Positions 6,906 to 12,289 of a DNA stretch of 27,286 nucleotides are shown piece by piece. The stretch's first letter is position 1, and the number at the start of each line of letters is the position of its first letter. The DNA comes from an uncultured Gammaproteobacteria bacterium (lineage in GTDB: Bacteria > Patescibacteriota > Microgenomatia > UBA1406 > GWC2-37-13): NCBI GenBank assembly GCA_964431935.1, contig CAYSLG010000001.1:2867-30152 (forward strand), given 5' to 3'. Both the position numbers and the translations under genes were made by a program. Under the pieces are notes generated by a model. The model saw only the letters and a program-made list of their open reading frames with translations. It was not told the DNA's origin and searched no databases.

Positions 6906-7907
6906 CTATAAGGTTATATTTGATTCCACAAAAATAATTCTGTCTGCAATGTCTTCTCCAAAAAAACGAGCTAATGCAATAAGATTCCTTTTATAGGTAT
7001 CATACGCTTGCTTCATTTCTTCAATAGAGCCGGAGTCGGTTTTTGATTTTGCAATTTCACGACCTAAGCGGAGAAGTTTTAATAAGCATCTTGGCAAAAG
7101 ATGTTTTCTAACAGATTGGTTTATTTTTTCTCTATCCTCAGGGCTTAAAAATTCATTCCCGATGATATTGAGTGATTTGGACAAAGCGATAAGAGTATCT
7201 TCAGGTGAAGTATTTGCCGTATTGGAGTCTTGACTAAGGAGTTTTTCCACTCTTTTTTTGTAAAACATAACAAGATGCTTATCAATAAATGTTTTATCAA
7301 GAGCAGATCCTGCTTCTTTCATAAGAGCATGAGCTCCGTTAAGATAGGCAATGGCGATTTCTTCAAAATAAGGATCAACATCAGGAATGAGGAAAATAGA
7401 AGTTCTAGATGCTCTGATGTAATCTTTTACCAGTATTAATGTAAGAAAATCATCGGCACTACTTGATATATCTTGCTGATCTGAAAGAACTGTATTTCTA
7501 AAAGTAACAAATTCTGAAGCTCCTTTTTTATGTGATACATTGTGTCTTGCGCTTTCAACAAAATCTATAATAAAATCGAAGAATGTTTTTCCTGATTGGG
7601 TAATCATTTCATCAATCTCAGGCATAGTTGGAATATAGGTAATTTGCGGATTACCTGTTTTATAGTGGAATCCTAAGGAGAAACTATATTGGATAGGTAT
7701 GAGCTCAGAAGAAGATGGTTTCTGTAATTGTGGAGCTGTGTTATGTATTAAATTAATAAAGATTCCGGCGTTTAATAGACGGAGCAAAGTCTTTTGAAGA
7801 AGAAACGATTCAACAATCCCCTTTTTTCTTCTATCAGATAATTCTTGCAGATATGGTTTTATTGGCGTTACACCGCTTCTTGAAAGAATGTCTTTAGCCC
7901 TTTCCAT
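6906..7907 (-). CDS. Hypothetical protein, 333 aa, probably soluble and largely helical
   Basis: Long open frame; TATAAT 8 nt upstream of the ATG; lower GC than ftsK in hand-counted lines. No motif recognised. Confidence 0.75.
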   Translation of the reverse strand: MERAKDILSRSGVTPIKPYLQELSDRRKKGIVESFLLQKTLLRLLNAGIFINLIHNTAPQLQKPSSSELIPIQYSFSLGFHYKTGNPQITYIPTMPEIDEMITQSGKTFFDFIIDFVESARHNVSHKKGASEFVTFRNTVLSDQQDISSSADDFLTLILVKDYIRASRTSIFLIPDVDPYFEEIAIAYLNGAHALMKEAGSALDKTFIDKHLVMFYKKRVEKLLSQDSNTANTSPEDTLIALSKSLNIIGNEFLSPEDREKINQSVRKHLLPRCLLKLLRLGREIAKSKTDSGSIEEMKQAYDTYKRNLIALARFFGEDIADRIIFVESNITL

Positions 7908-7953: not shown

Positions 7954-8907
7954 TTACCGCAGATATTTTTGAATATTCACATTGTGTTCTTCAAGAGTTT
8001 CCGCATAGTGTATATTGCCTGATGTATCGGAAAGGTAATACCAGTACTGTGTTGATCCGTTGGCATTTGCGGCAGCCTGTAGTGAGGCGAGCCCGGGATT
8101 ACTGATCGGACCCGGCGGAAGACCGGTGTTTTTATAGGTGTTATATGGAGATTTGATTGCCAGATCATCAAGTGTCAGATTTTTTTTCCACCATGTTTTT
8201 TCATTCGGCTGATATCCTGCCGCGTATTGAACCGCTGCATCAATCTGCAAAGGCCAGTCGTTTTTCATTCTTTTTACTATAATATTTGCCACTGTCAATC
8301 TGTCCTCGTCGCGCCTTACCTCCCGCTCAACAAGTGAAGCGAGCGTTACTATTTGATGTTTGGTAAGCGACGTATTTGCCTTTGAAATACCGCTGAATTT
8401 ATTTTCAAAATTATTCTGAAAAATTGAAACAATCATCTCCGCGGTTGCCGTCTTGGGAATAAGATAAGTATCAGGAAATAAATATCCTTCCGGAGCGCGC
8501 TGTATAAATTCAATTTCAGGTATGTCAAAATTTTTGCTTATGACGCTTGCTATTTCTTCTCTTCTCAATCCTTCAATAACAGTAGTCCACACATCCAGCG
8601 TGCCATGGGTAAGCGTTTTTGCAATGTCATGTGCGCTCATAGAAGGGGAAAGCCGGAAATCCCCAGCCTGTATGCTTTTTTCAATACCAAGCTGTTTAAC
8701 GACAATATAGAATACAATTCTGTTTCTGATAAGGGATTCGCTTGCAAGGTTTTTGATAATTGCATTAAGTCCATCGCCCTTTCTTATAACAAAAATTTTT
8801 GTTTCGGTTTTTGCCCTGTCAACAGGAAGCGCTCCTTCACGATAAATAAGGTAAAGAAATAATGTGCTCATTACTATGGCGGTAAGAAAAATAAAAATTT
8901 TTTTCAT
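7954..8907 (-). CDS. mltG: Endolytic transglycosylase MltG (YceG family)
   Basis: N-terminal membrane anchor, IQAGDFRL, EGYLFPDTY, LASLVERE (catalytic Glu), LQIDAAVQY, SPYNTYKNTGLPPGPISNPG. Confidence 0.95.
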   Translation of the reverse strand: MKKIFIFLTAIVMSTLFLYLIYREGALPVDRAKTETKIFVIRKGDGLNAIIKNLASESLIRNRIVFYIVVKQLGIEKSIQAGDFRLSPSMSAHDIAKTLTHGTLDVWTTVIEGLRREEIASVISKNFDIPEIEFIQRAPEGYLFPDTYLIPKTATAEMIVSIFQNNFENKFSGISKANTSLTKHQIVTLASLVEREVRRDEDRLTVANIIVKRMKNDWPLQIDAAVQYAAGYQPNEKTWWKKNLTLDDLAIKSPYNTYKNTGLPPGPISNPGLASLQAAANANGSTQYWYYLSDTSGNIHYAETLEEHNVNIQKYLR

Positions 8908-8915
8908 TTTATATT

Positions 8916-10181
8916 TTAAGACTCAATGGAAAAAATAGGAAAATGCTCTATTGTGACCTTTGCCTCTTCCAGTTTATATTTATTTTCAGCATATAATGTG
9001 AGAAGAATGTCTCCCTTATCCAGAACTTGGTCAACTTTTTTTATCAAGTAGATACCGGCCATTTTATCATTCGGAGCTCCCAAAACCTTTGCAACCGTAT
9101 TGAGATTATAATTATTTATCTCCTTAATTTTACCAGAGCGGTTTGCTTTTAGCTCAAACTTGTGCTGTGGAAGTCGTAAAGCGTTGGAACTTATTTCATC
9201 AGAACCTTTTTGGGCGCGTACAATTTCTTTAAATTTTTTGAGAGCGCTTCCGTCGGTAAGTATTCTTTTTGCTTCATCCTCTCCGTTTTTTTTAATGCCG
9301 GCATCTTCAAAACATATGGTAAGAAGTTTGCCGGCAAGCCTCAAGGCCTTTGCCTCAAGTTTCACAGGACGCTCTTTTTTTTGTTCAAGAACATATAAAG
9401 CGTCGCGTCCCTCCAACAAAGGTCCAACGCCGTTTCCGGCAGGTTCAATGGTTTCGTTGATATCCGCAATAATCTTCATGCCGAATTTTTTTCCTAAGGC
9501 CTGGAATTTGCGCATGATTTTTTCAGCATCGGTGTAATGACGGATTTTCATGGTTTTTCCAACAGGAATATCAAGAATGACATGAGTAGTTGAAGCTGCT
9601 ATTTTTTTTGCCATGATTGAAACGATAATCTTGTCAAAGGACTCAAACATAAGCTGTTCTTCAATTTTGATGATGATGTCATCAGCCGGCGCTATGCCCA
9701 GATGCCCGCCCCACACGATACACCCGCCGACAGTATCTACAATATGGGATATGGTTTTTAAGTCAAATGTTACTTTTGCAAAAATTTCCATGACATCGGC
9801 GGTACCTGCGGGAGAGGTGATTGCTCGTGAAGATGTTTTGGGAATTTTGACCCCTGCCGCTGCGATAATCGGGACAATAATAAGGGTGGTGCGCGTTCCC
9901 GCAACGCCTCCGGTTGAATGTTTGTCTGCAATAATCCCGTCAAAATGCAGTCGGTTTCCGGTTTCTACCATGGCTTTTGTGAGAAAATATAATTCATCTG
10001 CAGAAAATCCTTCTTTGAAAGACGAGGCGACAAAATATGTTGTAAGAACATCGCTTAATCTCTGATTGGCGATTTCGTCCATGATGGCATAAATTTCCCT
10101 ATAGGTAAGTTTTTTTCCAAGGAGTTTTTTTTGGATTGCACTTACCGCTTGCATGATGCTTATATTCTTTTTGTCGCTCAT
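8916..10181 (-). CDS. AMP phosphorylase-type (archaeal thymidine-phosphorylase-like) nucleotide phosphorylase lacking the N-terminal extension
   Basis: DKHSTGGVAGTRTTLIIVPIIAAAG and KIPKTSSRAITSPAGTADVME match the AMP-phosphorylase subfamily. Classical DeoA/Pdp has KMSGRGLGHTGGTLDKLE instead. Start overlaps the murJ stop by 4 nt. Confidence 0.88.
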   Translation of the reverse strand: MSDKKNISIMQAVSAIQKKLLGKKLTYREIYAIMDEIANQRLSDVLTTYFVASSFKEGFSADELYFLTKAMVETGNRLHFDGIIADKHSTGGVAGTRTTLIIVPIIAAAGVKIPKTSSRAITSPAGTADVMEIFAKVTFDLKTISHIVDTVGGCIVWGGHLGIAPADDIIIKIEEQLMFESFDKIIVSIMAKKIAASTTHVILDIPVGKTMKIRHYTDAEKIMRKFQALGKKFGMKIIADINETIEPAGNGVGPLLEGRDALYVLEQKKERPVKLEAKALRLAGKLLTICFEDAGIKKNGEDEAKRILTDGSALKKFKEIVRAQKGSDEISSNALRLPQHKFELKANRSGKIKEINNYNLNTVAKVLGAPNDKMAGIYLIKKVDQVLDKGDILLTLYAENKYKLEEAKVTIEHFPIFSIES

Positions 10182-11803
10182 AAAGAACTATATATTGTAA
10201 CAATTTTTTTATGGTATTCTTTTGCTTTGGTGAGAAGCCGGCCGATAAGGTACATTTCCTGTATTTCAAAAAGCCAGCACAGACTTAGGTAAAGAAGCCC
10301 GAAAACGAACGATATCACCATAAGAAGAAAAAAAACATTGAGTGTTCGCGTCGTATCAAACACCAAGCCGTCCAACAATTTCATAAGTTTGTAAGCAATA
10401 ACGGAAGAAACAACGGAAGCGGAGAAGATTTTTGTAATCTCAACGAGAAGAAATTTGAAATTAAAGCCGTGCAACCGTTTTGAAAGAACAAAAATTAACA
10501 ATACGACATTCAGTATCATTGCGAATGAAAAAGAAATTCCCAGCGACCAGATGGGAAGTTTTAAAAACAGAATAAAATAAATACTCATAAAAGCATTGAC
10601 GCAGATGGAAAAAAGCCCCTGATAAAAAGGAGTTTTGCTGTCCAGAAGCGCATAAAAACAGCGGGTAAGAAAATAATAAATTGAATGGAATGGAAGAGAA
10701 AGAGAAAACGCAGAAAGAGTCATGGCGGTAAGAACCGTCGCGTCCCAGTCAAACTTTCCTCCTCCAAAAAAAAGACGAACCAGCGGTGTTCTGGCAAAAA
10801 TAAAAAGCCCCATAATCGGTATAGTAAAAAAAGAAAGATTTACGATAGAATCTACAATAATTTTTTTCATTTCCTCAATTTTTTTCTCCTGGTACATTTC
10901 CGAAAGATAGGGGAGGGAAGCCTGGCCGAATGCAACGCCGATGATTGACACAGGAAGAAGTTGAAGATGTTGAGCAAAGTAAAAAACCGTATATGATCCG
11001 GCGCCAACAAATGTTGTAAGAGTCAGATCTATCGTTGCATCAATTTGCGCAACGGTAACGGTAAGAACACGCGGAATAACCATGCGAAAAAAATCTTTTA
11101 ATCCGGTTGTCAGGCGAAGCGTAAACAGATACCGGTAGTCGCTGATAAAAAGGAAAGGGATTTGTATTATGAAAAAAAGAATTGCTCCTAAGACAACGCC
11201 GGCAATCGGAGCAAGAAGAAACATTTGCTGGGCAAGAAAAAATGTTGCGGCGATAATTGCGATGTTATAAAGAACAGGGGCAAGGGCGGAAAGGATAAAG
11301 ATTTTGTTTGCCTGACCAATACCGGTTAAAAAGTTTCCTAAAACTAAAAACGGGAGTTGTCCAACCAGTAAAATCCTTGAATAGGAAATAATCAATCCGT
11401 TTTTTTCAGCCGAGAACCCCGGCGTTATAAGAGGAATAAGAAATGGCATAACAAAAAACAGAATAGAAATAAAAGCAAAGAGAATAATAGATATTAAATT
11501 AATGATTGAAGAAATATTTTTGTGTAAATCAAGCTTTGTTTTTTGGTACTTGATAAAAATGGGGATAAATGAAGATGTGAGAGCGCCGGTGATGAGGATT
11601 TCAAAGATCAAGTCGGGGATACGGAAAGAAGCAAAAAAAATATCCAGTTCTTCCTTGGTAAAATACCCTGCCAGAATACGGTATCGTAGAAAGCCAAACC
11701 CTCTGGAAAGCATGAGTGTAAAAGAAAGAATAATCGCCGAAGATATAATACTGCCTTGTTTTACAAGAATAAAATTCTTTGTTCTGTCCAGAAATTTTTC
11801 CAT
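10178..11803 (-). CDS. murJ: Lipid II flippase MurJ (MviN)
   Basis: Polytopic membrane protein with SRGFGFLRYRILAGYF, FRIPDLIFEILITGALTSSFIP and RCFYALLDSKTP. Start reassigned to ATG 11803 (MEKFL), 7 nt after a TACAAT box; the track start at 11863 runs through the mraZ promoter. Confidence 0.94.
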   Translation of the reverse strand: MEKFLDRTKNFILVKQGSIISSAIILSFTLMLSRGFGFLRYRILAGYFTKEELDIFFASFRIPDLIFEILITGALTSSFIPIFIKYQKTKLDLHKNISSIINLISIILFAFISILFFVMPFLIPLITPGFSAEKNGLIISYSRILLVGQLPFLVLGNFLTGIGQANKIFILSALAPVLYNIAIIAATFFLAQQMFLLAPIAGVVLGAILFFIIQIPFLFISDYRYLFTLRLTTGLKDFFRMVIPRVLTVTVAQIDATIDLTLTTFVGAGSYTVFYFAQHLQLLPVSIIGVAFGQASLPYLSEMYQEKKIEEMKKIIVDSIVNLSFFTIPIMGLFIFARTPLVRLFFGGGKFDWDATVLTAMTLSAFSLSLPFHSIYYFLTRCFYALLDSKTPFYQGLFSICVNAFMSIYFILFLKLPIWSLGISFSFAMILNVVLLIFVLSKRLHGFNFKFLLVEITKIFSASVVSSVIAYKLMKLLDGLVFDTTRTLNVFFLLMVISFVFGLLYLSLCWLFEIQEMYLIGRLLTKAKEYHKKIVTIYSSL

Positions 11804-11810
11804 TGCTCCC

Positions 11811-11840
11811 ATTGTAATGGTTTTTATCCATACTCTGCAA
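11811..11840 (-). promoter_or_regulatory. sigma70-type promoter of the murJ-phosphorylase-mltG operon
   Basis: Minus strand TTGCAG (11840-11835), 18-nt spacer, TACAAT (11816-11811). Confidence 0.6.
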
Positions 11841-11856
11841 GAGGATTCTCTTCTCC

Positions 11857-11885
11857 TTGACAAACGGTTTAAAATGGTTTTAAAT
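11857..11885 (+). promoter_or_regulatory. sigma70-type promoter of the dcw operon
   Basis: Perfect TTGACA (11857-11862), 17-nt spacer, TTAAAT (11880-11885, 4/6 match); ATG lies 8 nt downstream. Confidence 0.65.
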
Positions 11886-11910
11886 GGTTATATATGGTGT
11901 TTTTTGGTGA
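11861..11910 (+). promoter_or_regulatory. Putative MraZ operator: five direct repeats with a (T/C)GGT core at 10-bp period
   Basis: CAAACGGTTT / AAAATGGTTT / TAAATGGTTA / TATATGGTGT / TTTTTGGTGA. Characterised MraZ sites are short G-rich boxes at 10-bp period upstream of mraZ. Confidence 0.78.
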
Positions 11911-12289
11911 ATACTCTGTTTCATTTACCGCTCCAGGGCGGATTGTATTGCCCAAAAAACTCCGCGAACTTTTAAAAGGAAATATTTTTGTTCTGACAAA
12001 AGGTTTTGATTTCTGTTTGGCCGGATATGACAAAGAAGATTGGGAAGGAAGAGCGAAGGCTTTGTTACATGTTCCGCTTCTTGAAAAAGAGAATCTTGAA
12101 AAAAGAAGGTTTTTGTTTTCTTCTGCCGTATATCTGGAAATTGACGAACAGGGAAGATTTGTCATTTCAAGAAATCTTCTGCAATATGCGGGGTTGCATG
12201 AAAAAGTGCTGATTATCGGAATCGGCGACCATTTTGAAATCTGGGAAGAGAAGCGGTGGGAAAAATATATAAAAACAGCAAACAATTAA
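11894..12289 (+). CDS. mraZ: Division/cell-wall cluster transcriptional repressor MraZ
   Basis: FFGEY, GRIVLPKKLR, LTKGFDFCL, EIDEQGRFVI, IIGIGDHFEIW (two SpoVT/AbrB repeats); upstream of rsmH. Confidence 0.96.
   Translation: MVFFGEYSVSFTAPGRIVLPKKLRELLKGNIFVLTKGFDFCLAGYDKEDWEGRAKALLHVPLLEKENLEKRRFLFSSAVYLEIDEQGRFVISRNLLQYAGLHEKVLIIGIGDHFEIWEEKRWEKYIKTANN

Follow-up and report, generated by a model that had tools for sequence, protein, structure and literature searches.

What does a phosphorylase of nucleotide metabolism do between two genes of the cell wall? The question is raised by a 27,286-nt stretch of contig CAYSLG010000001.1 (assembly GCA_964431935.1, positions 2,867 to 30,152; hereafter the window) from a bacterium of the class Microgenomatia, order UBA1406, in the phylum Patescibacteriota. 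In this window, a phosphorylase gene stands between murJ, which encodes the lipid II flippase, and mltG, which encodes an endolytic murein transglycosylase. The initial annotation took the enzyme to be of the AMP phosphorylase type. It offered two readings of the linkage: a coupling of cell-wall synthesis, in which MraY releases UMP, to the salvage of nucleoside monophosphates (NMPs), or incidental operon packing. The reading that we favour, with moderate confidence, is that a naturally truncated enzyme of the AMP phosphorylase clade occupies an inherited operon position and works alone, without its pathway partners.

Family placement of the phosphorylase

The phosphorylase gene (8916..10181, minus strand) encodes a protein of 421 aa (P0001), which hidden Markov model (HMM) and PDB matches identified as a short-form AMP-phosphorylase-type enzyme without the N-terminal domain. 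The protein is of the three-domain glycosyltransferase-family-3 type (PF02885, PF00591 and PF07831). Two archaeal-type models named 'putative thymidine phosphorylase' were matched above their cut-offs, NF003338 with 460.7 bits (cut-off 434) and TIGR02645 with 438.0 bits (cut-off 434.6). None of the DeoA/Pdp models reached its cut-off: TIGR02643, TIGR02644, NF004490 and NF004747 gave 142.3, 220.9, 203.9 and 178 bits against 570.7, 409, 269 and 559, respectively. The top hit among solved structures was the AMP phosphorylase of Thermococcus kodakarensis (4GA4/4GA5, E 1.9e-86, residues 11-411), compared to about 1e-40 to 3e-40 for pyrimidine-nucleoside phosphorylases (PyNP). The clade signature KTSSRAITSPAGTAD, already pointed out in the initial annotation, lies at residues 115-129 (9795..9839, minus strand), where Escherichia coli DeoA has ISGRGLGHTGGTLD.

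Active-site residues were mapped by alignment of the phosphorylase onto E. coli DeoA. Of the DeoA phosphate-site residues, Lys84, His85, Ser86, Ser113 and Thr123 are identical (K87, H88, S89, S117 and T127), and Ser95 is replaced conservatively by T99. DeoA Arg171 binds the pyrimidine (thymine) and is grouped here with Ser186 and Lys190; the latter two are retained as Ser188 and Lys192, and Arg171 is replaced by Glu174. Further replacements are Tyr168 by Ile171, Phe210 by Lys212 and Gly118 by Thr122, and the DeoA loop GLGHTGG reads AITSPAG. Glu174, Lys212, Ile171 and Thr122 are common to the long forms from candidate phyla radiation (CPR) genomes and are kept in 37 to 39 of the 39 sequences of the order. 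The enzyme thus resembles E. coli DeoA and Geobacillus PyNP in fold family, length, phosphate-site residues, Ser186 and Lys190, but differs from them in the residues at Arg171, Tyr168 and Phe210, in the AITSPAG loop and in HMM scores far under the cut-offs. With the T. kodakarensis AMP phosphorylase (TK0353; 4GA4, 4GA5 and 4GA6), it shares the SSRAITS-x-AGTAD loop and the three Pfam domains.

Because of the HMM and PDB ranking and the replaced DeoA residues, the enzyme groups with the AMP phosphorylases and not with thymidine phosphorylase (TP) or PyNP. Judged by these comparisons, it is a member of the archaeal AMP phosphorylase clade, outside DeoA/Pdp. Its placement relative to the archaeal and DeoA/Pdp enzymes rests on the HMM and PDB scores and the DeoA residue mapping; the homologue set used for the tree below consisted of close relatives, with no archaeal or DeoA/Pdp sequences. 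The identity first proposed therefore stands, and the ordinary thymidine/pyrimidine-nucleoside phosphorylase that had been set against it does not apply, since the enzyme is AMP-phosphorylase-type and models of that type score higher.

A natural N-terminal truncation

All models aligned to the protein from profile position ~86, and the archaeal N-terminal domain (N-domain) of ~85 aa is missing. In this respect the enzyme differs from TK0353, and its alignment covers no more than the portion retained in 4GA4, a chain deposited in truncated form. The start was not mis-called, with just two open codons upstream of the phosphorylase ATG. Short-form loci of the class have at most 57 open codons upstream of the homologous region, and homologues from other classes of the phylum have ~90-100 aa open there. 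An N-domain HMM built from 23 long forms gave no match in any short-form locus. Supply of the domain in trans was considered and rejected, as the same HMM found nothing in a six-frame translation of the genome at E up to 10. The initial annotation had been silent on both the missing domain and the score of the AMP phosphorylase equivalog below its cut-off.

A similar short form is known. The passages of Jaffe et al. (2019, Mol Biol Evol; PMC6389311) that deal with deoA describe a conserved ~80-aa N-terminal deletion in Gottesmanbacteria/OP11. The phosphorylase matches this OP11 short deoA in class, in the N-terminal deletion and in its place in the vertically inherited OP11 clade. Unlike here, the OP11 short deoA goes with e2b2 and form III-c/III-like RuBisCO, some of them consecutive or fused; the order studied here is without both. 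Earlier publications thus already describe this enzyme family, its occurrence in CPR and the short variant of OP11.

Absence of the pathway partners

AMP phosphorylase normally feeds ribose-1,5-bisphosphate (R15P) isomerase and RuBisCO. Searches with PF00016 for RuBisCO and PF01008 for the R15P-isomerase family (IF-2B) found neither partner in the window, in agreement with the initial annotation, nor in the whole 0.84-Mb assembly (88% complete, 109 contigs). The sampled genomes are related to one another, and the following proportions are descriptive only. The phosphorylase was present in 36 of the 41 genomes of the order, whereas the searches for RuBisCO and for IF-2B/R15P isomerase each gave 0 of 41; completeness reaches 90% or more in 36 of the 41 genomes. 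This absence of R15P isomerase and form III RuBisCO from genome and order is a further difference from TK0353. Across 201 genomes of the class, the short-form phosphorylase occurred in 54 and was absent from 147. RuBisCO was found in 22 genomes, all within the 54, and IF-2B-family matches in 21, of which 20 also had the phosphorylase (one of these matches is weak, below the cut-off). In the phylum sample outside the class, 24 of the 29 genomes with a long-form phosphorylase had RuBisCO.

The pathway genes might exist and have been missed, either through incomplete assemblies or because the partners are too divergent, and an assembly of 88% completeness in 109 contigs leaves some room for this. 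We regard it as hardly credible. Neither RuBisCO nor IF-2B was found in the 41 genomes of the order, of which 36 reach a completeness of 90% or more and several have 10 or fewer contigs, and the same searches detected both genes in 20-22 other genomes of the class as well as in control genomes.

The whole order and the Levybacteria-type lineages thus retain the short form in a well-conserved state and have no R15P isomerase or RuBisCO. AMP phosphorylase homologues in CPR are routinely taken as markers of RuBisCO-dependent nucleotide salvage; since both partners are missing, a pathway inferred from the phosphorylase gene alone would be wrong in these lineages. The complete absence of both partners from large clades with a strongly constrained enzyme was not found in the literature searched.

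An indication of other uses came from a global homologue search, whose figures are drawn from the best 150 representatives. Most of these homologues are ~500 aa in length. Among them were five fusions (P0238, P0248, P0259, P0271 and P0174), four with PhnN, the PRPP-forming ribose-1,5-bisphosphokinase (171-184 bits, cut-off 156), and one with a PRK07199-type synthetase of phosphoribosyl pyrophosphate (PRPP). The P0271 and P0174 fusions lack the N-domain. AMP-phosphorylase-type enzymes therefore also operate in connection with PRPP metabolism, apart from the RuBisCO route. The fusions tie R15P to PRPP, whereas the present genome is without PhnN and its PRPP synthetase is unlinked. By analogy with them, a RuBisCO-independent role is plausible here, although PhnN is missing. 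The genome does have HGPRT, an ordinary unlinked PRPP synthetase and one further, unassigned phosphoribosyltransferase. Three other homologues of 640-950 aa (P0145, P0171 and P0205) have a LAGLIDADG-endonuclease intein close to the DKHSxGG phosphate loop.

A different account of the partner-less enzyme is that the truncated form is in practice a thymidine or pyrimidine-nucleoside phosphorylase, as the NCBI annotation names it. Relatives are annotated 'thymidine phosphorylase', the length equals that of DeoA, and the N-domain reportedly needed for AMP phosphorylase activity is missing. Such an enzyme would also fill a gap, since searches of the genome gave no phosphorylase of the PNP/UDP family. 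However, the PyNP/TP models gave 142-221 bits, below their cut-offs, compared to 430-461 for the AMP-phosphorylase-type models, and Glu and Lys stand in place of DeoA's thymine-binding Arg171 and of its Phe210, respectively. Furthermore, no phosphopentomutase (DeoB) was found in the genome to use ribose-1-phosphate, the sole Metalloenzyme-family match being iPGM. Clade effects aside, no alignment column splits RuBisCO-less from RuBisCO-linked short forms. Position 175, which is Arg in the long forms (in T. kodakarensis too, judged by eye) and Glu here, was considered as a mark of lost NMP binding. It was ruled out, since Glu is also found at this position directly behind isomerase~RuBisCO fusions. 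Taken together, these data make a shift to nucleosides unlikely.

Phylogeny and conservation

A maximum-likelihood tree was built from 100 phosphorylase sequences. The long forms formed one clade (SH-aLRT 99), as did the sequences of the order (86). The topology tracked the organism families, and the RuBisCO label required 7-8 changes on it. In the relevant passages of PMC6389311, deoA is viewed as vertically inherited and RuBisCO as mobile; the vertical phosphorylase tree and the 7-8 label changes agree with this view.

The enzyme has been kept intact in the lineages without partners. Conservation was 90% or more in 59 columns of the long forms and the RuBisCO-linked short forms. In the RuBisCO-less lineages, 54 of these were equally conserved, among them the conserved columns of the phosphate loop and the base site. 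Mean identity to the window proteins within the order was 63.7% for the phosphorylase, compared to 56.8% for MltG and 56.9% for MurJ; elsewhere in the class it was 55.3% for the phosphorylase and 46.9% for MltG. No stop codons were found in ~160 phosphorylase copies.

These values bear on the possibility that the gene is a decaying remnant of a lost AMP pathway, retained because its deletion would disturb mltG expression. The phosphorylase has been lost in 4-5 of 41 relatives, and two copies in the order are on very long branches, as such a remnant would predict. However, a gene that is better conserved than murJ and mltG, with 54 of 59 family-wide conserved columns intact and no stops in its many copies, makes decay very improbable. 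On this evidence of constraint, the phosphorylase gene is not a relic. As to the two divergent copies, L075 (genome G005) and L076 (genome G024), their branches amount to ~1.5 changes per site; both keep open frames and the murJ/mltG flanks, and relaxed or altered constraint is possible.

Conservation above that of its neighbours, together with the retained family and phosphate-site residues, argues for a RuBisCO-independent role of the phosphorylase. From the sequence evidence, this role is probably stand-alone nucleotide phosphorolysis. The retained short form would thus imply a second, RuBisCO-independent function and another fate of R15P.

Gene order across Microgenomatia

The order murJ-phosphorylase-mltG was found in 30 of 30 loci of the order in a first survey, and in 67 loci in total. 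Across the class, mltG lay directly downstream of the phosphorylase on the same strand in 154 of 158 short-form loci, not all of them independent, as a few genomes were reached twice. The other four loci end 83-530 bp past the phosphorylase. The phosphorylase-mltG adjacency therefore survived all flank rearrangements (154/154 assessable loci). At the murJ-phosphorylase junction, 46 of 68 loci showed overlaps of 4 or 8 nt and 18 showed gaps of 0-20 nt. The 154 phosphorylase-mltG junctions comprised 45 overlaps, 50 gaps of 0-20 nt, 21 of 21-100 nt, 35 of 101-400 nt and three larger ones. About 30 loci of other families (L026-L030, L035, L041-L056) have a phosphorylase-mltG spacer of 200-226 nt, very similar in length. 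A regulatory RNA in these spacers was considered and rejected, as Rfam families matched none of the 10 loci examined (E up to 0.1).

The upstream gene varied by lineage and was murJ, a sortase gene, or the gene for R15P isomerase with or without fused RuBisCO. In Levybacteria-type and several other families, alaS, a ~750-aa protein with a baseplate-J-like domain and a sortase were encoded upstream. Locus L134:768-5722 and most Levybacteria-type loci read alaS, ~750-aa weak Baseplate_J protein, sortase, phosphorylase, mltG. In other lineages, the R15P isomerase gene or a gene for an isomerase~RuBisCO fusion of 717-757 aa overlaps or abuts the phosphorylase start, with mltG downstream. Fusion open reading frames (ORFs) of isomerase (IF-2B) and RuBisCO were seen at L069:18-2171 and in G055:C11, G087:C20 and G060:C37; in G071 (L069), G055 and G087 the end of the fusion overlaps or abuts the short phosphorylase start, and mltG follows.

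Isomerase-RuBisCO fusions have been reported (Jaffe et al. 2019; PMC6389311). The passages of that paper available to us mention neither a linkage with mltG or murJ nor the continuation into mltG after the fusions, and full-text searches did not find the linkage. Likewise, neither the class-wide mltG pairing nor the order-wide murJ-phosphorylase-mltG operon was found in the literature searched. The adjacency is real and strongly retained, with the whole neighbourhood kept across the order and its mltG part across the class. Uniqueness to this one genome, which the initial annotation had raised as the result that would count against it, thus does not hold.

The long forms outside the class had no mltG within 1.5 kb, and several of them adjoin RuBisCO. 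In four relatives that have no phosphorylase gene, mltG comes immediately after murJ, indicating a clean loss.

Does the operon reflect a pathway?

The coupling to cell-wall synthesis suggested in the initial annotation could mean that the enzyme removes or recycles the UMP that MraY sets free, or further nucleotides from the making of the wall, and for that reason shares an operon with murJ and mltG. The invariance of the mltG adjacency while the flanks change is consistent with such a coupling, as are the frequent stop/start overlaps and the divergent orientation of the operon to the mraZ cell-wall cluster. The two commonest upstream neighbours are envelope genes, murJ or sortase, with R15P isomerase in other lineages. 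In addition, the T. kodakarensis enzyme is said, in work attributed to Aono and colleagues in 2012, to take CMP and UMP as well. In E. coli, mltG and the thymidylate kinase gene tmk have 11 nt in common.

However, the adjacency arose just once and hence counts as one observation only. It is absent around the long forms of other classes, 147 of 201 class genomes are without the enzyme, and the four relatives just described deleted the phosphorylase yet keep murJ-mltG. In sister lineages, the same gene overlaps with R15P isomerase/RuBisCO genes. Destruction of UMP would also be costly here, because neither uracil phosphoribosyltransferase (UPRT) nor uridine kinase was found above the cut-off and the UMP kinase match reached just 44 bits. 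We therefore regard this coupling as quite unlikely. Since the gene order looks like inherited operon structure, the proposed link from MraY to UMP salvage has gained no independent support. The UMP kinase match itself, in a 444-aa ORF, was the best for a bacterial-type enzyme, none being above the cut-off in this 88% complete genome. The E. coli K-12 region (1154112-1155765, L199) is a second, independent instance of mltG packed beside a gene of pyrimidine nucleotides (tmk).

A related possibility is that the phosphorylase and mltG form a functional pair, in which the enzyme without N-domain has a role of its own in envelope growth, for instance in control of the UMP/NMP pool that lipid I/II synthesis generates or in providing R15P or PRPP for a step coupled to glycan-strand release. 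We give this only a slim chance. If true, such an envelope-tied role would connect nucleotide salvage to peptidoglycan assembly in CPR bacteria in a way not known before.

The operon position is best read as inherited structure and not as a metabolic pathway, because the adjacency is of single origin, absent around homologues elsewhere, dispensable in four relatives and in the 147 of 201 genomes, and occurs together with the genes of the canonical pathway in sister lineages. Of the two readings offered initially, incidental operon packing fits better, taken to mean an operon that was inherited and has been strongly retained. The cell-wall context is accordingly a robust gene-order marker for Microgenomatia and not evidence of a wall-nucleotide pathway.

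The favoured reading, a truncated enzyme that works alone from an inherited position, runs as follows. The product of the middle gene belongs to the clade of archaeal-type AMP (nucleoside-monophosphate) phosphorylases and is naturally truncated at its N-terminus. Its chemistry would most likely be the reversible reaction NMP + phosphate <-> free base + R15P. In a single event at the base of the class Microgenomatia, the short phosphorylase gene took up its fixed place directly upstream of mltG, and murJ came to stand ahead of it at the base of the Roizmanbacteria-containing order. In sister lineages, the short enzyme, encoded behind R15P isomerase with or without fused RuBisCO, would serve the known AMP pathway. 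In the order without both partners, the enzyme would act alone, most plausibly in nucleobase/pentose salvage, and be expressed alongside growth-related envelope genes. Family placement, truncation, absence of partners, conservation and gene-order history are shown by the data, and the substrate, the direction of the reaction and the fate of R15P are inferred.

Several observations weigh against this reading. The AMP phosphorylase equivalog TIGR03327 (AMP_phos) gave 429.8 bits, below its cut-off of 535 and over profile positions 86-492 only, which again sets the enzyme apart from TK0353. The N-domain of the T. kodakarensis enzyme is said to have been found necessary for activity and multimerisation by Nishitani and colleagues in 2013, and the activity of a natural truncation is therefore not self-evident. 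The truncated form, co-operonic with isomerase/RuBisCO genes in sister lineages, in turn bears on whether the N-domain is required for activity. Searches of the genome gave nothing that would consume R15P, neither R15P isomerase nor PhnN, so that a stand-alone forward reaction has no visible purpose. UPRT and uridine kinase likewise had no match above the cut-off in the genome. Finally, the adjacency is retained more strongly than would be usual for synteny that merely drifts, and a real dependency may lie behind it.

Organization of the locus

The leading gene of the operon is murJ (10178..11812, minus strand; start position uncertain), identified by PF03023 (E 1.3e-67) and TIGR01695 (257.1 bits, cut-off 235.6). 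Its ORF was listed as 10178-11863 (minus strand) from a TTG, and in-frame ATGs lie at 11812 and 11803, the latter being the end coordinate used in the initial annotation. The candidate starts are thus ATG 11812, ATG 11803 and TTG 11863, and MurJ matches of ~541 aa in relatives suit an ATG. The stop of murJ and the start of the phosphorylase gene lie in one ATGA sequence (10178..10181, minus strand), the 4-nt overlap described in the initial annotation. The 8-nt spacer given there is also present, from the phosphorylase TAA to the mltG ATG (8908..8915, minus strand). The mltG gene (7954..8907, minus strand) encodes a YceG-family protein of 317 aa (PF02618, E 1.4e-73; TIGR00247, 199.9 bits). The phosphorylase gene is probably co-transcribed with murJ and mltG. 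As for the 'translationally coupled' of the initial annotation, the tight junctions are confirmed, and coupling itself is still suggested by the spacing. No Shine-Dalgarno-like run was visible ahead of the phosphorylase or mltG start, and consensus scans for internal promoters and terminators in the operon gave counts equal to those of shuffled sequence.

The operon is divergent from a cell-division/cell-wall cluster, mraZ-rsmH-ftsI, headed by mraZ (11894..12289, plus strand; TIGR00242, 114.6 bits), after which come rsmH and a PBP gene. A 333-aa ORF (6906-7907, minus strand) lies 46 nt past mltG and is convergent with ftsK. It had no Pfam/NCBIfam match and is absent from that position in relatives; its product looks helical and cytoplasmic. 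A 138-aa ORF (11869-12285, minus strand) is an antisense shadow of mraZ, and its matches in relatives arise merely through mraZ conservation.

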